The translations under genes were made by a program, and so were the position numbers. From Escherichia phage ST31, in the sequence record NC_047829.1: DNA of 39,693 nucleotides. One strand, 5' to 3'. This document shows, in pieces, positions 1-39,693 of this stretch. The notes beneath the pieces were generated by a model. That model ran no database searches. It was not told the DNA's origin and saw only the letters and a list, made by a program, of their open reading frames with translations. Every line of letters starts with the position of its first letter. Position 1 is the first letter of the stretch.

Positions 1-513
1 GGCAAAGGCGCGTTCACTAAGTGCTACCTGAAGGATTGCGGGAAGCGTGTAATTCTGGTCTCTTCTGACCCGATAAAGGAGTGTATGGCGTGGGGATGGT
101 TTCCTGAGTCTCCACTGTTCCCTGAAGTCAAGATGATTGAGGTAGGCACGTATGAGATGGACTACATGCCACCAACGCGAGGTCTCAAGGCGCATTTAGA
201 TGACGACCAGTGGCAACTCTATCAGGTGCTGCGCGACTGCTTCTCACGGTCTCCGGTATTCTCTCGACCTGCTGACCTGTATCACAAGTGGTACGAGATA
301 TTCCAAGCTGCACACGACAGGTCTGAGACTGAGACTGTGCGGGAAGGTCTGATGGCTGTGCTGATGGCGCTGGACGCTTGCGCTAACTTCGGGTCAGACA
401 TTCAGTTTGAGATAAGCCCACGCAATGTACGGGCCGTGAACGGCAAGTTGATACTGGTGGACTGCTTCTTCCTTGTGTCCAAGCTGCAAGAGGTGAGGTC
501 ATCAAGATGGTAA
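1..513 (+). CDS. Atypical protein kinase-like early protein (T7 gp0.7 position); 5' end lies at 39672-39693 across the window junction
   Basis: Frame 1 is open from base 1; joined to 39672-39693 through the 10-nt end overlap it reads MKLIGKGAFTKCYL...RVILVSS, a glycine-rich loop resembling T7 gp0.7 LGNGHFSAAY...RVIKVG as I recall it; about 174 aa in total. Confidence 0.6.
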   Translation, partial: GKGAFTKCYLKDCGKRVILVSSDPIKECMAWGWFPESPLFPEVKMIEVGTYEMDYMPPTRGLKAHLDDDQWQLYQVLRDCFSRSPVFSRPADLYHKWYEIFQAAHDRSETETVREGLMAVLMALDACANFGSDIQFEISPRNVRAVNGKLILVDCFFLVSKLQEVRSSRW

Positions 514-656
514 CTTATGGTCTCTGCCAGCACCACGTCACCAACGCCCGGCTTATGGTAAAGACCGGGCAGTTAAACCACGATGCGACCATGCGCCACT
601 TGAAAGCGGTCTATGAGGGCCGCAAGCGTATACACGACAGTTTGCACGCTGAGTGA
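507..656 (+). CDS. Small early hypothetical protein (49 aa)
   Basis: ATG 507 preceded by GAGGTGAGG; overlaps kinase stop; below ORF-track size cutoff; translated by eye. Confidence 0.3.
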   Translation: MVTYGLCQHHVTNARLMVKTGQLNHDATMRHLKAVYEGRKRIHDSLHAE

Positions 657-1535: not shown

Positions 1536-4217
1536 ATGAGCGTCATCTCTATTGACAAGCACGACTTCTCTGATGTGTCGAACGCCATTGAGCCGTTTAA
1601 CCTGCTGGCTGACCACTACGGGCAAGACCTTGCAGTCAAACAGCTTCAGCTTGAGCACGAGGCATACACTGAAGGCGAGCGACGTTTCATCAAGAACCTT
1701 GAGCGCCAGACTGATCGCGGGGAACTGGCAGACAATCAGGTCGCCAAGCCTTTGATGCAGACTCTGGTCCCTAAGATTGCGCAAGCCGTCAAGGAGTGGC
1801 ATGAAGGTCCAGACGGGAAGCTGTCAACCTCTCGTCCGAGCGTAGCGTTCACCATGCTGAGCACTGAAGAGAAGGCCGTCAAGGACCGCTCTCTGCGCAT
1901 CTCCTGTGAGTCTGCTGCGGTTATCATACTGAAGGTCATTCTCTCCAAGCTGGTCAAGCCTGAAGGGATACCGATTACACCTATGGCCTCCGCGATAGGT
2001 CGCACACTTGAAGATGAAATCCGTTTCGGTCGAATTCGAGACAAGGAGCAGGAGCACTTCAAGAAGGCGATAGCTGAGAACCTGAACAAGCGAGCGGGGG
2101 TATCCTACAAGAAAGCCTACATGCAAGCGGTCGAGACCTCCATGCTGGAGCAAGGCCAACTGGAAGATGCGTGGGGGACTTGGAGTCCGACCGAGGCGGT
2201 CCACGTTGGCATCAAGATGCTTGAGATTGTCATCCAGTCTACACAGCTGGTCGAGCTTAAGCGTTACGGTGCTGGCAATGCTGCGGCTGACGTTGAGATG
2301 GTCCACCTGTCAGACTTCTGGGTCAAGAAGATGGCCCAACGTGGCTTCAGCCTTGCGGGTATCGCGCCAGTCTATCAACCTTGCGTAGTTCCACCTAAGC
2401 CGTGGACTGGAGTCGTGGGCGGTGGGTATTGGGCCAAAGGTCGCAGACCATTGCCACTGATTCGCTTAGGGTCTAAGTCTGCGGTGGCACGTTACGAAGA
2501 CGTGTACATGCCTGAAGTATATGACGCTGTTAACATCATCCAGAATACGCCTTGGAAAGTGAACAAGAAGGTGCTGGACGTGGTGAACATGGTCGAGAAG
2601 CTGAACAATACGCCTATTGATGACATCCCTCAAATGGAGCCACTGAAGCCTGAGGACTATGCGGGTGAGACTGAAGAAGAACTCAAGGCATGGAAGAAAG
2701 CTGCTGCCGGTATCTATCGTCGCGAGAAGGCCCGACAGTCACGCAGATTGTCGCTGAGTTTTATCGTCAGCCAAGCGAACAAGTTCTCTCAGTTCAAGGC
2801 CATCTGGTTCCCGTACAACATGGACTGGCGCGGTCGCGTCTACGCTGTGCCGATGTTCAACCCTCAGGGTAACGACATGCAGAAAGGTCTTCTGACTCTG
2901 GCAGTCGGTAAGCCTATTGGTGCTGATGGTTTCAAATGGCTGAAGGTCCACGGTGCAAACTGTGCGGGTGTCGATAAAGTAACCTTCGAGGAGCGCATCA
3001 AGTGGGTGGAAGATAACCACGACAACATCATGGCTGCTGCCAAAGCACCGATGGATAGCATTGAGTGGTGGGGCAGGTTAGACTCTCCGTTCTGCTTCCT
3101 TGCGTTCTGCTTCGAGTATGCTGGCGTAATGCACCACGGCCTGTCTTACTCCTGCTCGCTACCGATAGCGTTCGATGGGTCCTGCTCTGGGATTCAGCAC
3201 TTCAGCGCGATGCTTCGAGACCACATCGGTGGACATGCAGTAAACCTAACGCCATCCGGTAAGGTCCAAGACATCTATCGAATCGTGTCTGACCGCATTG
3301 AGGAAGAACTCAAAGTCCTGCTGGTTAACGGTACGGACAACGAGATGGTGACTCACGAGGACAAGAAAACTGGTGAGATTACCGAGCGTCTCAAGCTGGG
3401 GACACGAGAGCTGGCCCGTCAGTGGCTGACCTACGGTATGTCACGCAAGGTCACTAAGCGTTCGGTCATGACTCTGGCCTACGGGTCGAAAGAGTACGGA
3501 TTCGCAGACCAAGTGTACGAGGACATCGTGATGCCAGCTATTGACTCAGGGTCTGGCGCTATGTTCACTGAACCAAGCCAAGCGTCTCGCTTCATGGCTA
3601 AGATGATTTGGGAAGCTGTGAGTGTGACCGTAGTCGCTGCGGTTGACGCGATGAAGTGGCTTCAAGGTGCTGCCAAGCTGCTGGCTGCTGAAGTGAAGGA
3701 CAAGAAGACTGGCGAAATCCTGAAGCCATGCCTTCCGGTACACTGGGTAACACCTGATGGTTTCCCGGTCTGGCAGGAATACCGCAAGAAGGATACCACT
3801 CGTCTGAACCTGATGTTCTTAGGGTCATTCAATCTTCAGCCTACCGTCAACAGAGGTACGAAGAAAGAGCTGGACAAGCACAAGCAGGAGTCAGGCATTA
3901 GCCCGAACTTCGTCCACTCACAAGATGGCAGCCACCTCCGCAAGACTGTAGTCCACACTCACCGCAAGTATGGCGTGATGTCATTCGCAGTGATTCACGA
4001 TAGCTTCGGGACCATCCCGGCTGACGCTGAGTATCTGTTCCGTGGTGTCCGTGAGACGATGGTCGAGACCTACCGCGACAACGATGTGCTGCTTGACTTC
4101 TACGAGCAGTTCGAATACCAGCTTCATGAGAGCCAGCGTGACAAGTTGCCTGAGCTTCCGAAGAAAGGTAAACTGAATATCGAAGACATCTTGTCTTCAG
4201 ACTTTGCATTCGCTTAA
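1536..4217 (+). CDS. Single-subunit DNA-directed RNA polymerase (T7 gene 1 homologue)
   Basis: 893 aa; long colinear blocks matching T7 RNAP as recalled (PFNLLADHYG, MFQPCVVPPKPWTG, AIWFPYNMDWRGRVYAV, DGSCSGIQHFSAMLRD, HDSFGT, C-terminal FAFA). Confidence 0.98.
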   Translation: MSVISIDKHDFSDVSNAIEPFNLLADHYGQDLAVKQLQLEHEAYTEGERRFIKNLERQTDRGELADNQVAKPLMQTLVPKIAQAVKEWHEGPDGKLSTSRPSVAFTMLSTEEKAVKDRSLRISCESAAVIILKVILSKLVKPEGIPITPMASAIGRTLEDEIRFGRIRDKEQEHFKKAIAENLNKRAGVSYKKAYMQAVETSMLEQGQLEDAWGTWSPTEAVHVGIKMLEIVIQSTQLVELKRYGAGNAAADVEMVHLSDFWVKKMAQRGFSLAGIAPVYQPCVVPPKPWTGVVGGGYWAKGRRPLPLIRLGSKSAVARYEDVYMPEVYDAVNIIQNTPWKVNKKVLDVVNMVEKLNNTPIDDIPQMEPLKPEDYAGETEEELKAWKKAAAGIYRREKARQSRRLSLSFIVSQANKFSQFKAIWFPYNMDWRGRVYAVPMFNPQGNDMQKGLLTLAVGKPIGADGFKWLKVHGANCAGVDKVTFEERIKWVEDNHDNIMAAAKAPMDSIEWWGRLDSPFCFLAFCFEYAGVMHHGLSYSCSLPIAFDGSCSGIQHFSAMLRDHIGGHAVNLTPSGKVQDIYRIVSDRIEEELKVLLVNGTDNEMVTHEDKKTGEITERLKLGTRELARQWLTYGMSRKVTKRSVMTLAYGSKEYGFADQVYEDIVMPAIDSGSGAMFTEPSQASRFMAKMIWEAVSVTVVAAVDAMKWLQGAAKLLAAEVKDKKTGEILKPCLPVHWVTPDGFPVWQEYRKKDTTRLNLMFLGSFNLQPTVNRGTKKELDKHKQESGISPNFVHSQDGSHLRKTVVHTHRKYGVMSFAVIHDSFGTIPADAEYLFRGVRETMVETYRDNDVLLDFYEQFEYQLHESQRDKLPELPKKGKLNIEDILSSDFAFA

Positions 4218-4229
4218 CAGGAGAGAGTT

Positions 4230-12118: not shown

Positions 12119-14290
12119 ATGTTTGACCTTAAGAGTATCTGGGGTTCTGACATCGAGACCAACGGTCTCCTTGATACAGTCTCCCAGTTCCACTGTGGGG
12201 TCCTGATTAACGCCGAGTCGAATGAGACCCTTAAGTATGGGGTAGCTCCGATGGTCGGTATCGTCGGTGGCTTCAAAGAGTATGTGCATAAAGTGGAAGA
12301 GATTGCCGCATCACCTGATGGTATGCTTGTCTTCCATAACGGTATCAACTATGACGTCCCGGCTATAGACAAGCTGAAGCGTCTGTACTTTGGGAAACGC
12401 TTTAACTTCCCGAAACACAAGATGATTGATACCTTGGTGCTGGGCCGCTTGATGTATCCAAACATTAAGTTCTCAGACATGGGCGCGGTGAAAGCTGGTC
12501 GTCTGCCACCTAATATGATGGGACGTCAGTCTCTTGAGGCTTGGGGTTATCGTCTTGGTGAGATGAAAGGTGAGTACAAACACGATTACGTTGCCAAGTG
12601 CAAGGCTGAAGGTATCGAATATAAGGCTGGGGACGAATGGTTGTTCCCGTCTCAGGAGATGCTGGACTATAACGTTCAAGACGTTGTGGTCACGCTGGCG
12701 TTGTTCAAGAAGTTCCTGACTGACAAGTATTACTTCCAGTCTGAACAGTTCGCTTTCGACCAGATTTATGCGTTGCGGCTGGAACATGATGCTGCGTGGA
12801 CCTGTGCGAAGATGGAACGTAACGGCTATCCGATGAACACCGAGATGGTCGAAGGCTTATATCGTGAACTAACCGTCAAACGTGCAGAGCTGCTAGACAA
12901 GCTGCGTTCGACTTTCGGTAGCTGGTACGCACCAAAGGGAGGCAAGGAGTTCTTCAAGCACCCCAGGACAGGCAAGGACCTTCCGAAGTATCCGCGAGTC
13001 GTGTATCCTAAGGTTGGTGGCATCTTTAAGAAGCCTAAGAACAAAGCTCAACGCTTAGGTCTTGAACCTTGTGAGCGCGATACGCGAGACACGATGGAGG
13101 GAGCACCGTTCACACCTATCACTTACGTTGAGTTTAATCCGGGAAGCGGAGACCACTTAGCGAAAGTCTTGATGGAGCGTGGCTGGGAGCCTGTGGACTT
13201 CACTGACACCGGGAAACCTGTAGTCGATGACGAGACGTTAGAACACGTTAAGTTACCAGACGCAGAGGCTCAGGCTTGCGTAGAGCTGGTCCGTGAGTAT
13301 CTTGTAGTCCAGAAGAGAATCGGGCAGGCTGCTGAAGGTAAGAACGCATGGTTGAAACTTGTAGGTCCAGACGGACGTATGCATGGTTCAATCAACCCAT
13401 GCGGGGCAGTAACCGGACGTGCGACTCACAGTTCACCAAACATGGCTCAGGTCCCGGCTAACGGTGCTCCATATGGTGAGACTTGCCGTGGTGCTTTCGG
13501 TGCAGCTTGGAACAAGACGGATGGTAAGCCAGACCCTTGGATTCAAGTGGGTGTGGATGCCTCAGGTCTTGAGCTTCGTTGTCTGGGGAACCGAGCAGCT
13601 CCGTTTGATGGTGGTGCCTATGCGAAGACTGTGGTCGAAGGTGACATCCACTGGGCCAACGCAGTCAACGCTGGGTTAGCACCTAACGTCCCACGCGATA
13701 AATCGAACCACGATCATGAGGCTTTCCGTAACAACGCTAAGACGTTCATCTATGCGTTCCTGTATGGTGCAGGAGCAGCTAAGATTGGACTGATAGTCGG
13801 CGGTGGTAAGAAGGAAGGTTCAGCTCTCATGAAGAAATTCATTGAGGGTACACCAGCCATCAAGGACCTCAGGGAAGCTGTGAGTAATACGTTAATCTCA
13901 GACTCTAAGTGGGTGGACGGAGAGAACATCGTCAAGTGGAAACGCCGTTGGTTGCGTGGACTTGATGGTCGCCGTATCCACATCCGGTCGCCGCACTCAG
14001 CACTTAACGCCTTACTTCAAGGAGATGGCGCGGTAGTCTGTAAGCACTGGATTGTTGAGACTGAACGTATGCTCGAAGAGGCCGGGTATGTTCACGGCTG
14101 GGAAGGTGACTTTGCGTACATGGCATGGGTCCACGACGAATTGCAGATTGCGTGTCGTACTCAGGAGATTGCCGAAGAAGTCGTCAAGATTGCTCAACTT
14201 GCTATGCGTAAGGTGGGTGAGTTCTATAACTTTAAATGTGTCCTTGATACCGAAGGTAAGATTGGACCAACTTGGAAGGAGTGTCACTAA
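12119..14290 (+). CDS. DNA polymerase (T7 gene 5 homologue), 3'-5' exonuclease plus family A polymerase
   Basis: 723 aa from ATG 12119 (GGAGG RBS); DIETNGLL...FHCGV, LEAWGYRLGEMKGEYK, FGSWY, AVTGRATHS, NAKTFIYAFLYGAG, GLDGRRIHIRSPH, FAYMAWVHDE; track start 12083 is an upstream GTG I do not favour. Confidence 0.97.
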   Translation: MFDLKSIWGSDIETNGLLDTVSQFHCGVLINAESNETLKYGVAPMVGIVGGFKEYVHKVEEIAASPDGMLVFHNGINYDVPAIDKLKRLYFGKRFNFPKHKMIDTLVLGRLMYPNIKFSDMGAVKAGRLPPNMMGRQSLEAWGYRLGEMKGEYKHDYVAKCKAEGIEYKAGDEWLFPSQEMLDYNVQDVVVTLALFKKFLTDKYYFQSEQFAFDQIYALRLEHDAAWTCAKMERNGYPMNTEMVEGLYRELTVKRAELLDKLRSTFGSWYAPKGGKEFFKHPRTGKDLPKYPRVVYPKVGGIFKKPKNKAQRLGLEPCERDTRDTMEGAPFTPITYVEFNPGSGDHLAKVLMERGWEPVDFTDTGKPVVDDETLEHVKLPDAEAQACVELVREYLVVQKRIGQAAEGKNAWLKLVGPDGRMHGSINPCGAVTGRATHSSPNMAQVPANGAPYGETCRGAFGAAWNKTDGKPDPWIQVGVDASGLELRCLGNRAAPFDGGAYAKTVVEGDIHWANAVNAGLAPNVPRDKSNHDHEAFRNNAKTFIYAFLYGAGAAKIGLIVGGGKKEGSALMKKFIEGTPAIKDLREAVSNTLISDSKWVDGENIVKWKRRWLRGLDGRRIHIRSPHSALNALLQGDGAVVCKHWIVETERMLEEAGYVHGWEGDFAYMAWVHDELQIACRTQEIAEEVVKIAQLAMRKVGEFYNFKCVLDTEGKIGPTWKECH

Positions 14291-14580
14291 TGGCTATGAC
14301 CAAACGTATGCGAGTTTCGTTCTCGCTGGGTGCTGTACTGTCCACCGAAGACGTGGATCATTTCAAGAAGTCTCTTTGTAAGCTGAGCCGTAAGGTTCTG
14401 AACGGAGAGAATACCACTGGCTTAGAGCGTAAGATGGTAGAGGTAGGTGCTACAGAGGGTCTGGAAGCTGTGGTAGAGCTTGTCATTAAGAAAGGCATTG
14501 TTGATGGCCTGAAAGAAGACCTGAGTAGTTACGCTGACAAACCCAGCTTCGGAGACTTCCGAGTGGAGTTCAAGCAATGA
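14290..14580 (+). CDS. gp5.5-like protein (T7 gene 5.5 homologue)
   Basis: Start at internal ATG 14290 of track ORF (AAGGAG RBS, overlaps polymerase stop); MAMTKRMRVSF matches T7 gp5.5 MAMTKKFKVSF as recalled. Confidence 0.8.
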   Translation: MAMTKRMRVSFSLGAVLSTEDVDHFKKSLCKLSRKVLNGENTTGLERKMVEVGATEGLEAVVELVIKKGIVDGLKEDLSSYADKPSFGDFRVEFKQ

Positions 14581-14786
14581 GTGAATACTTACGGGTCCTA
14601 GCGGCCCTTAAGTCCGGCCCGAAGACCTTCCAGTCCAACTATGTGCGCAACAACGCTGCACTTGTGGCTGAGGCTGCGAGTCGTGGACATCTAAGCTGTC
14701 TGTCTATGGATGGGCGTAACAACGGTGCGTGGGAGATTACCGCTGCTGGCACCAAGTTCCTGAACCAACACGGAGGCTGCCTGTGA
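14577..14786 (+). CDS. gp5.7-like protein (T7 gene 5.7 homologue)
   Basis: 69 aa; MSEYLRVL..LKSGPKTFQSNYVRNNAALVAEAASRGH..GAWEITAAGTKFL matches T7 gp5.7 as recalled. Confidence 0.85.
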   Translation: MSEYLRVLAALKSGPKTFQSNYVRNNAALVAEAASRGHLSCLSMDGRNNGAWEITAAGTKFLNQHGGCL

Positions 14787-15649
14787 GCGAAAAGAAAATA
14801 GCTCTGGTTCTGGATGGTGACTATCTGGTCTTCTCTTCTATGGCTGCTGCCGAGGACGAGACAGACTGGGGTGATGACATCTGGACCCTTATCTGCGACC
14901 ATGAGAAGGCTCGTCGTATCCTTGAGAACACCATCGCTGAAATCGTTAAGAAGCGAAAGGCGTGGAAAGACGCTAAGATTGTTATGTGCTTTACTGACGA
15001 TAACAACTGGCGTAAGGACGTTCTGCCTACCTATAAGGCCAACCGTAAAGGTTCTCGCAAGCCTGTAGGTTACAAGAAGTTCGTAGCAGAAGTGATGGCT
15101 GACCCACGGTTCAACAGCTTCCTACGTCCTACGCTTGAAGGTGATGACTGTATGGGTATCATCGGGACCCGACCTCAGATTGTCGGGTGTGACCATGCGG
15201 TGCTGGTGTCCTGTGACAAGGACTTCAAGACCATCCCGAACTGTGAGTTCTACTGGTTGACCACTGGCGAAATCCTGAGTCATACGACTGCCGAGGCAGA
15301 CTACTGGCACATGGAGCAAACCATCAAGGGTGACACTACAGATGGCTACGGCGGTATTCCGGGGATGGGTGAGGACACCACTCGTGCATTCCTTGATGAG
15401 CCGTACTACTTCGTGCAGGAGAGCCGAGAGCTTAAGACTGGTAAGAACAAAGGCCAGATTAAGACTGAGTGGAAGAAGTATCCGAAGCGTGAAGACATGA
15501 CGCTGTGGGACTGCATGGTGACTCTGGCTGCTAAAGCTGGGATGACCGAGGAGGAACTTCTGGTCCAAGCTCATGTCGCTCGTATTTGTCGAGCCTCCGA
15601 CTATGACCCTAAGTCCAAGGAGGTCATCCTGTGGACACCATCCATGTAA
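14783..15649 (+). CDS. 5'-3' exonuclease (T7 gene 6 homologue)
   Basis: Probable GTG start 14783 (GGAGG RBS, overlaps 5.7 stop); LDGDYLVF, NWRK, YKANRK, KPVGY, CDKDFKTIPNC, TIKGDTTDGY, LWDC...AGMTEE; track start 14729 lies inside gene 5.7. Confidence 0.93.
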   Translation: MSEKKIALVLDGDYLVFSSMAAAEDETDWGDDIWTLICDHEKARRILENTIAEIVKKRKAWKDAKIVMCFTDDNNWRKDVLPTYKANRKGSRKPVGYKKFVAEVMADPRFNSFLRPTLEGDDCMGIIGTRPQIVGCDHAVLVSCDKDFKTIPNCEFYWLTTGEILSHTTAEADYWHMEQTIKGDTTDGYGGIPGMGEDTTRAFLDEPYYFVQESRELKTGKNKGQIKTEWKKYPKREDMTLWDCMVTLAAKAGMTEEELLVQAHVARICRASDYDPKSKEVILWTPSM

Positions 15650-38450: not shown

Positions 38451-38635
38451 TCTCACAGTTCAAGAACCTCAAGTCTCCCCCATAGGCCCTCTTTCAGTCC
38501 AGACCAAAGGCCCTACCCAGTCTATCATAAGGTTGGACCGAGGGTCAAGACTTCAGGTCAACGATAGGTTGAGGCTATGGCTTAGGGAAGGACGATAGGT
38601 AGGGACTATGGGTCTGTCTCTGAGTCTCTATCTGT
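38451..38635 (+). repeat. Probable direct terminal repeat (single collapsed copy) containing the physical genome end
   Basis: Begins TCTCACAGT...CCCCCATAGG and ends GTCTGTCTCTGAGTCTCTATCTGT, paralleling T7 TR start (TCTCACAGTGTACGG...) and end (GTGTCTCTCTGTGTCCCTATCTGT) as recalled; boundaries approximate. Confidence 0.4.
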
Positions 38636-38850: not shown

Positions 38851-38879
38851 TTGACTACAGGTCTAGACTATGGCTTAAT
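38851..38879 (+). promoter_or_regulatory. Host sigma70 early promoter (T7 A1-like)
   Basis: -35 TTGACT (38851-38856), 17-nt spacer, -10-like CTTAAT; AT-rich upstream; flanking sequence parallels T7 A1 region. Confidence 0.5.
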
Positions 38880-38991: not shown

Positions 38992-39021
38992 TTGACAAGT
39001 AGTACCGACTTAAAGTAGTAT
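38992..39021 (+). promoter_or_regulatory. Host sigma70 early promoter (T7 A2-like)
   Basis: -35 TTGACA (38992-38997), 18-nt spacer, -10 TAGTAT; preceded by CCGGTTAAGTAGACAGCCTGATAAGTC, near-identical to T7 sequence between A1 and A2 as recalled. Confidence 0.55.
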
Positions 39022-39139: not shown

Positions 39140-39168
39140 TTGACAGCCTCCTTTAAAAGCTGTAAGCT
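39140..39168 (+). promoter_or_regulatory. Host sigma70 early promoter (T7 A3-like)
   Basis: -35 TTGACA (39140-39145), 17-nt spacer, -10-like TAAGCT. Confidence 0.4.
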
Positions 39169-39284
39169 GTACCACATCGAAACGACAGTGAGTCCCAACA
39201 CTGAAACGGGATAGCACGGCGACGACAGCCAACGCAAATGCTCTTTAACAATCTGGATAAACTCTTAATGTGCGCCGATAGCGA

Positions 39285-39345
39285 CTAACTACAGGGTCTT
39301 TGAGTCTACACCTGAAGGCCCTGACTGATAGTCACTAACTTAACG
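39285..39345 (+). promoter_or_regulatory. Leader hairpin upstream of gene 0.3-slot ORF (RNase III site candidate)
   Basis: ACTACAGGGTCTTTGAGTCTACACCTGAAGGCCCTGACTGATAGTCACTAACTTAACGG; CAGGGTC pairs GGCCCTG; near-duplicate at 39608-39660. Confidence 0.4.
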
Positions 39346-39346
39346 G

Positions 39347-39601
39347 ATGGACACTATGAAACACTTAAGCACAATCACTAATCACAATGAAGTATTCATG
39401 AACACTAAAGGTTATGCGTGGATTCAGCTTAAAGAGATGACAGGAGCGCGTCACCGTGTGGTAGTGCGCAAGGTCTCAAGCAAGCAGTTCAGCAACTACA
39501 GCGTAGATACTGTGCGTATAGACAACGAGACCTACCTGATAGACTCGCAGATAACCGTGAGTCCTACAGCTAGCGTCTCAGCTCCTTATTTCGCTAACTG
39601 A
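39347..39601 (+). CDS. Early protein of unknown function in the gene 0.3 (Ocr/SAMase) slot
   Basis: 84 aa ORF, first gene after the sigma70 promoters; no resemblance to T7 Ocr (not acidic) or to T3 SAMase as recalled. Confidence 0.6.
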   Translation: MDTMKHLSTITNHNEVFMNTKGYAWIQLKEMTGARHRVVVRKVSSKQFSNYSVDTVRIDNETYLIDSQITVSPTASVSAPYFAN

Positions 39602-39607
39602 GAGTGA

Positions 39608-39660
39608 TTAACTACAGGTCGTTAGACTCATAGCGGCCTGACTGATAGTCACTAACTAAA
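39608..39660 (+). promoter_or_regulatory. Leader hairpin upstream of kinase-like gene (RNase III site candidate)
   Basis: ACTACAGGTCGTTAGACTCATAGCGGCCTGACTGATAGTCACTAACTAAAGG; second copy of the 39285-39345 element. Confidence 0.4.
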
Positions 39661-39671
39661 GGATAAACAAG

Positions 39672-39693
39672 ATGAAACTGATAGGCAAAGGCG
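39672..39693 (+). CDS. 5' end of kinase-like gene, continuing at base 11 of the window
   Basis: ATG 39672 after AAGGA; MKLIGKG...; last 10 nt of the window (GGCAAAGGCG) are identical to the first 10 nt. Confidence 0.5.

Follow-up and report, generated by a model that had tools for sequence, protein, structure and literature searches.

Ocr, the product of T7 gene 0.3 (PF08684), is a strongly acidic, helical DNA mimic that inhibits type I restriction-modification (R-M) and bacteriophage exclusion (BREX) systems, and the T3-type S-adenosylmethionine (SAM) lyase, or SAMase (gp0.3, PF23780), an enzyme of about 138–164 amino acids (aa), is another early anti-restriction cassette. Other small class I proteins of T7 contribute to host takeover; they are short, non-essential and early, bind host proteins stoichiometrically and are variably present among relatives. 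Here, the early region of Escherichia phage ST31 was analyzed from sequence record NC_047829.1, whose complete stretch of 39,693 nucleotides (nt) is called the window below, with a focus on an open reading frame (ORF) of 84 aa on the plus strand at positions 39347–39601. This ORF, confirmed in the sequence, is named gp0.2 after its homologue in phage K1F. Like T7 Ocr, gp0.2 is a class I early accessory cassette with A1–A3-type promoters and an R0.3-type hairpin; the two genes lie in separate slots, usually coexist and share no sequence or profile similarity. According to our comparisons, and this is new here, gp0.2 appears to be a recently spreading accessory gene that crosses phage lineages and accompanies Ocr or SAM lyase instead of standing in for either, and its product is a candidate counter-defence factor.

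Two cassette slots in the early region

The left ends of five relatives (K1F, Hafnia phage yong1, EcoDS1, PRF-SP5 and YZ1) were compared with the window. The region is laid out as the terminal repeat, three promoters, a type 1 hairpin, a first slot (slot A), a type 2 hairpin, a second slot (slot B) and gene 0.35. Slot A holds gp0.2 in the window and in K1F and an unrelated 92-aa gene (PHROG 9817) in yong1, and is empty in EcoDS1, PRF-SP5 and YZ1. Slot B holds Ocr in K1F and yong1 (169 aa in each), EcoDS1 (110 aa) and PRF-SP5 (127 aa), and a 174-aa protein of PHROG 11084 in the window and in YZ1. The Pfam model PF08684, which misses gp0.2, detected all four of these Ocr proteins with expectation values (E) of 2e-30 to 4e-38. 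Besides, relatives without gp0.2 stop matching the window exactly at position 39339, and matching returns with the second hairpin or with gene 0.35. Because synteny puts Ocr after the second hairpin, one slot downstream, gp0.2 lies outside the Ocr slot. It occupies the optional slot A, one position 5' of slot B, which is the true Ocr slot, and in the window phage Ocr has been replaced by the next gene, the 174-aa one. The original prediction, which had placed the ORF in the Ocr/SAMase slot itself, has to be corrected on this point. The two-slot cassette architecture with duplicated R0.3-like hairpins is new here.

Context statistics were obtained from GenBank phages and Logan contigs, as IMG/VR supplied only 6 loci. 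In GenBank, gp0.2 is followed directly by Ocr in 64 phage records, K1F among them, and by the 174-aa gene in 10, exact colinearity with the window being found only in vB_EcoP-U8. The gp0.2 protein is the same in substance in K1F and in the window, whereas the next gene encodes Ocr in the former and the 174-aa non-Ocr protein in the latter. Other phages carrying both gp0.2 and the 174-aa gene, such as KM02, have an extra 62-aa ORF (PHROG 336; 1089–1277 in KM02) between them, which makes a third cassette position that is empty in the window and in phage U8. Gene 0.35 (49 aa, window 507–656) follows slot B as T7 gene 0.4 follows gene 0.3, and was kept in all the Kayfunaviruses compared.

Three predicted host sigma70 early promoters precede slot A on the plus strand. 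The first is A1-like (TTGACT-17-CTTAAT, 38851–38879), the second A2-like (TTGACA-18-TAGTAT, 10/12 consensus positions, 38992–39021) and the third A3-like (TTGACA-17-TAAGCT, 39140–39168); they align with the EcoDS1 promoters for host RNA polymerase (RNAP) at 469–505, 609–647 and 764–800, respectively. A scan with the sigma70 consensus was not significant by itself (4 sites versus 1.8 ± 1.3 expected). The three sites match the three annotated host RNAP promoters of EcoDS1 base for base, and their -35 and -10 elements are retained where the DNA around them has diverged. The three sigma70 promoters and the leader hairpin announced in the original prediction were thus both recovered.

The leader hairpin (type 1, 39284–39336, plus strand) forms the 5' edge of slot A and folds at -16 kcal/mol. 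Both its shape and its flanks are homologous to those of the T7 stretch immediately 5' of gene 0.3, where the R0.3 site for RNase III lies in T7. A second R0.3-like putative RNase III site (type 2, 39606–39658, plus strand; -18 kcal/mol, z -3.6) marks the boundary between slots A and B. Both types share the flanks GAyTAACTACAGG (about 13 nt) and CCTGACTGATAGTCACTAAC (about 20 nt); their stem sequences differ and each base-pairs. Rfam held no family for either hairpin. Positions 39603–39656 are 100% identical to positions 1222–1275 of yong1, though the flanking genes differ on both sides, and this identity despite different neighbours suggests that the hairpins, besides being putative RNase III sites, serve as recombination joints at which early-gene cassettes are exchanged.

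The ORF product matched PHROG 10124 over profile positions 1–77 of 77 (E 3.6e-40). Its amino-acid identity to K1F gp0.2 (CAJ29341) is 94%, the position behind the early promoters is also the same, and the family core (LS.I / KGYAW / RKV.SK.FSN.SVDTVRI / YLIDSQ / APYF) is present. By these measures, it belongs to the K1F gp0.2 family, catalogued as a hypothetical protein. The description of an uncharacterized first early gene therefore stands, since the ORF exists, comes first behind the host promoters and falls in a family with no assigned function. Besides, the ORF is a real coding gene: relative to the Phapecoctavirus copies, 33–38 codon changes are synonymous and 17–21 non-synonymous, and 45–50 changes fall at third positions versus 14–22 at positions 1 and 2 together. 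The start codon is likely the second ATG, at 39356, and not the one at 39347, because of the placement of a Shine-Dalgarno-like GGATGG (39345–39350, plus strand; AAGGATGG at the matching site of K1F), the annotation of K1F and the close homologues. Indeed, this motif lies 5 nt 5' of ATG 39356 and includes the earlier ATG, K1F gp0.2 is annotated from the second ATG, and close homologues are mostly of 81 aa and begin at the equivalent methionine. The coding sequence would then span 39356–39601 on the plus strand, i.e., 81 aa plus the stop codon, encoding a small, basic, predicted all-beta protein.

This protein has a mass of 9.2 kDa, an isoelectric point (pI) of 9.45 and a net charge of +2.8; the pI is at least 8.0 in 26 of 28 family members and typically about 9–10. 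An AlphaFold model built on a 28-sequence alignment reached a predicted local distance difference test (pLDDT) score of 86 and a predicted template modelling (pTM) score of 0.74, with seven beta-strands over residues 5–73. The C-terminal tail (...SAPYFAN) is modelled with low confidence yet conserved, and is missing from the most distant members. Conserved residues, in the numbering of the 84-aa ORF, are L7, S8, R41, K42, F48-S49-N50, V56, Y63 and D66, and the core motif persists in at least five phage lineages, even where identity falls to 34%. No match to gp0.2 was found in Pfam (E up to 10), in NCBIfam or among PDB sequences, and no catalytic or enzymatic signature was seen. A confident predicted fold that appears to have no solved counterpart is thus also new here. 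Because it is basic and, in the model, all-beta, gp0.2 cannot work as an acidic DNA mimic of the Ocr type, and at 81 aa, with no family match and no catalytic motif, it differs from SAM lyase as well. A comparison by hhalign of the gp0.2 family alignment with T7 Ocr gave E 0.72 over 13 columns, i.e., no relation, in agreement with the earlier statement that the ORF resembles neither Ocr nor SAMase.

Other anti-defence genes were sought using authentic T7, K1F and PGT2 sequences (Ocr, SAM lyase, gp0.7 and gp5.9) as queries. When the whole genome was searched by tblastn, no match was obtained with T7 Ocr, K1F Ocr or two SAM lyases, and no homologue of T7 gp0.4, 0.5, 0.6 or 0.7 was found. The window phage therefore has no Ocr at all, which is new here. 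T7 gp5.9 had no match in the genome either. The genes for gp5.5 (14290–14550, H-NS inhibitor-like), gp5.7 (14577–14783, 75% identical to T7) and the gp6 exonuclease (from about 14741) abut or overlap, leaving no room for gene 5.9 in window 14272–15649; the lack of a gene 5.9-like RecBCD inhibitor, claimed earlier, is borne out. As it has no Ocr, SAM lyase or gp5.9, the phage must rely on other early proteins.

Spread and selection of the gp0.2 cassette

About 69–74 of about 218 phage records with a Kayfunavirus-level RNAP, i.e., about one third, carry gp0.2. Carriage is similar in Ocr-type (about 35%) and 174-aa-type (about 28%) genomes, so gp0.2 assorts independently of slot B content. The window was then compared with K1F and two IMG/VR relatives over positions 39356–39598 (gp0.2) and 1536–3935 (RNAP). 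For the same genome pairs, synonymous divergence (dS) was 0.04–0.07 in gp0.2 versus 0.23–0.28 in RNAP, i.e., 4–7 times lower, and 2–3.5 synonymous changes were observed in gp0.2 versus roughly 13 estimated at the divergence of the backbone. Because these changes are far below the backbone expectation, the cassette would be younger than the backbone and recently spread by recombination. The ratio of non-synonymous to synonymous divergence (dN/dS) was 0.3–0.7 for gp0.2 and 0.02–0.04 for RNAP. Though the counts are small, this indicates a recent horizontal sweep of the gp0.2 cassette.

Horizontal transfer has carried gp0.2 into unrelated virulent phages, five lineages in all, and everywhere the gene sits with other small early genes. 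In Klebsiella T7-like phages, a homologue of about 70% identity is the first substantive early ORF. Ermolevavirus PGT2 carries a homologue, N4-like Gamaleyaviruses have one of 35–48% identity between the RNAP1 subunit genes, and 150-kb Phapecoctaviruses have one within arrays of small genes. In metagenomic T7-like contigs, family members come first or second among the early genes. When 1.84 billion representative proteins were searched exhaustively with the family profile, only 16 clusters matched, of which distant members were separately confirmed as PHROG 10124. A screen of 5,426 complete E. coli genomes and of 72,556 plasmids turned up no copy. The one non-family hit of the profile search, a 1147-aa surface protein (P0049), was rejected as a clue to the fold, its match (5 matched stretches within a repeated segment) being treated as spurious.

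Anti-defence genes are found close to several of these homologues. In PGT2, a SAM lyase gene (PF23780, E 7.5e-24) lies directly upstream of the gp0.2 homologue with a 1-nt gap, and in metagenomic T7-like contigs a SAM lyase lies 1–3 genes downstream of the homologues P0047, P0045 and P0055. 

Two further homologues have particular surroundings. P0048 (189 aa, contig L020, 4001–4570) consists of a gp0.2-like N-terminal domain fused to a 120-aa extension. It opens the early region of a T7-like metagenomic phage in which a T7-type kinase is present as well. Its C-terminal 120 aa gave only a sub-threshold match to DUF7447 and no PHROG. In Escherichia phage St11Ph5, the ORF at 3866–4222, two genes 3' of the N4-like gp0.2 homologue, gave a borderline YAcAr/SLOG match (27.5 bits for a cut-off of 28.2). 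If this domain binds nucleotide-derived ligands, the neighbour would be another hint of a conflict-related neighbourhood.

Candidate functions of gp0.2

Our favoured reading, to which we give just short of an even chance, is that gp0.2 is a counter-defence factor. It most likely binds a host component, probably in the service of counter-defence, and its target would be neither type I R-M nor BREX. Indeed, gp0.2 coexists with Ocr and SAM lyase, which cover type I R-M and BREX, so its target is probably a different barrier. The operational marks of counter-defence genes were found, namely patchy presence, horizontal transfer and clustering with anti-defence genes, the last being partly forced.

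The following course of events could be proposed. Host RNAP would read gp0.2 from the three A1–A3-like promoters near the genome end that enters first, and RNase III would cut at both R0.3-type hairpins, yielding a short monocistronic gp0.2 mRNA stabilized by its 3' hairpin. The hairpins may also act as recombination joints for cassette swapping. The protein would bind a host factor stoichiometrically in the first minutes of infection, and this factor would most probably belong to a host barrier against phages that is distinct from type I R-M and from BREX.

Several points weigh against a counter-defence role. T7-like early regions hold only 5–10 genes, of which one is nearly always Ocr or SAMase, so that gp0.2 would in part be expected next to one of these by its location alone. 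Small size, early expression and variable presence are also seen in non-immune takeover genes, T7 0.4 for instance, and the genomic signature thus fits counter-defence and takeover alike. The dN/dS values depend on 5–10 substitutions per pair only. Besides, literature searches on the gp0.2 family and the K1F accession found no experiment or paper dealing with the family, and gp0.2 peptide strings did not occur in the 39 supplements of the accessory-gene screen of Silas et al.

A fuller version of the counter-defence reading is that gp0.2 founds a new counter-defence family, with a new small all-beta fold, a basic non-mimic surface and a hairpin-bounded cassette that spreads among virulent enterobacterial phages, acting on a barrier beyond the reach of Ocr and SAM lyase and, together with its kinase-like neighbour, forming an Ocr-free anti-defence set. 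We regard this version as doubtful, though worth stating. In a bolder version, the system disarmed by gp0.2 would be one triggered when it senses Ocr, SAM lyase or the phage's early takeover of the cell.

The best surviving alternative, which we consider rather unlikely, is that gp0.2 helps in host takeover by acting on a target outside immunity, such as cell division, transcription or RNA metabolism. T7 gp0.4 and gp0.7 are established examples of small early accessory proteins acting on housekeeping targets. A concrete case would be the factor by which K1F mislocalizes FtsZ: K1F blocks Z-ring formation though it has no T7 gene 0.4, and the peptide responsible was not identified (PMC9372555). 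The window genome likewise has no gene 0.4 homologue. However, about two thirds of Kayfunaviruses do without gp0.2, which would be odd for a general takeover function, and the frequent horizontal transfer and recent sweep suit an arms-race gene better. As for FtsZ, gp0.2 shows no sequence similarity by tblastn to the T7 FtsZ inhibitor gp0.4, whose syntenic counterpart is gp0.35. Because it is syntenic with T7 0.4 and conserved across the Kayfunaviruses compared, gp0.35 is a better candidate than gp0.2 and, as far as gene order can tell, the best positional candidate for the K1F factor.

That gp0.2 would bind nucleic acid, protecting or regulating the incoming DNA end of the phage itself or its early mRNA, for example as a nuclease shield in a phage without gp5.9, seems improbable. 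We give still less credit to a role in inter-phage competition or superinfection exclusion, or to a neutral, hitch-hiking ORFan. The patchy distribution, the movement by recombination at repeated hairpins and the lack of an assigned function would all be compatible with such a gene, but long-range purifying selection and the persistence of the core motif at 34% identity argue for a selected function, and exclusion factors are typical of temperate phages or late stages, whereas gp0.2 occurs only in virulent phages and on the very first transcript. 

Least probable of all is the role foreseen in the original prediction, in which gp0.2 functionally replaces Ocr or SAMase as the chief protection of this phage from type I restriction (and BREX). 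In favour of this role, no other gene precedes gp0.2 behind the host promoters, its distance from the left end is near that of T7 gene 0.3, and the genome has neither Ocr nor SAM lyase. On the other side, 64 of the about 74 Kayfunavirus records with gp0.2 also have a genuine Ocr, directly 3' of gp0.2, and SAM lyase is present together with gp0.2 in PGT2, where gp0.2 follows it, and in three metagenomic phages. The carriage of gp0.2 is independent of Ocr-slot content, and its product is basic and all-beta rather than an acidic helical mimic and, at 81 aa and with no SAM lyase match, too small for that enzyme. Besides, the positional replacement of Ocr is the 174-aa gene.

Slot B neighbour, genome frame and significance

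The 174-aa gene of slot B, the positional equivalent of Ocr, lies on the plus strand at 39672–39683 and continues at 1–513 (39684–39693 being the same bases as 1–10). Its product carries the conserved, kinase-like motifs IGKGAFTK.Y, DPIKE, FEISPRNV and LxDCFF, and its Dickeya phage homologues are annotated as Ser/Thr kinases. The family comprises more than 155 clusters, from Kayfunavirus, Klebsiella, Dickeya, Seurat-like, Ralstonia, Cellulophaga and Pseudomonas phages. A comparison by hhalign of the family with T7 gp0.7 gave E 0.012 and a probability of 3.5%, with a colinear G-loop and catalytic loop. The protein had no Pfam, NCBIfam or PDB match, and the Pfam kinase models matched 0 of 32 family members. 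Given this hhalign probability and the absence of a Pfam kinase or PDB match, its identification as a gp0.7-like kinase was not retained other than as a lead. The 174-aa protein is half as large as the T7 gp0.7 kinase and lacks a shut-off domain. For kinases of the gp0.7 type, inactivation of defence proteins, DndFGH among them, has been reported (PMC12345140). The 174-aa protein may be a more important counter-defence candidate here than gp0.2. Because it sits at the position labelled Ocr in related records, its gene is easily mistaken for Ocr, a common annotation error.

Bases 39684–39693 of the window duplicate bases 1–10, and the window is colinear with complete Kayfunavirus genomes, i.e., K1F-like T7 relatives (Autographiviridae, Studiervirinae). 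From this 10-nt end overlap and this colinearity, the window is a circularly permuted Kayfunavirus genome, 39,683 bp long and complete. The physical left end (TCTCACAGT..., 38451–38460, plus strand) aligns with position 1 of K1F, YZ1, EcoDS1 and yong1, and a direct terminal repeat of about 180 bp is present there only once in the window, where EcoDS1 is annotated with a 178-bp terminal repeat. With the left end at 38451, the gp0.2 gene begins about 900 nt inside that end, i.e., at 906 nt, compared with 925 for T7 gene 0.3. It lies upstream of, and on the same strand as, RNAP gene 1 (window 1536–4217), the position of a T7-type class I gene. A sequence resembling a T7-type phage promoter (TAACTATCACTATAGGA) is found just 5' of the RNAP gene, at about 1437–1475, where EcoDS1 is annotated with a phage promoter; it would allow the phage RNAP to transcribe its own gene.

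Overall, gp0.2 is a good candidate for wet-lab work rather than a surprise. Some Kayfunaviruses, K1F and LM33_P1 among them, serve as chassis for therapy and engineering directed at pathogenic E. coli, and the action of the proteins they express first affects host range. With the two-slot architecture, other T7-like genomes can be mined by a simple rule for more early counter-defence cassettes. If gp0.2 does block a defence, it would represent a structurally new inhibitor family and would point to the system by which T7-like phages are still limited after they have neutralized type I R-M and BREX.

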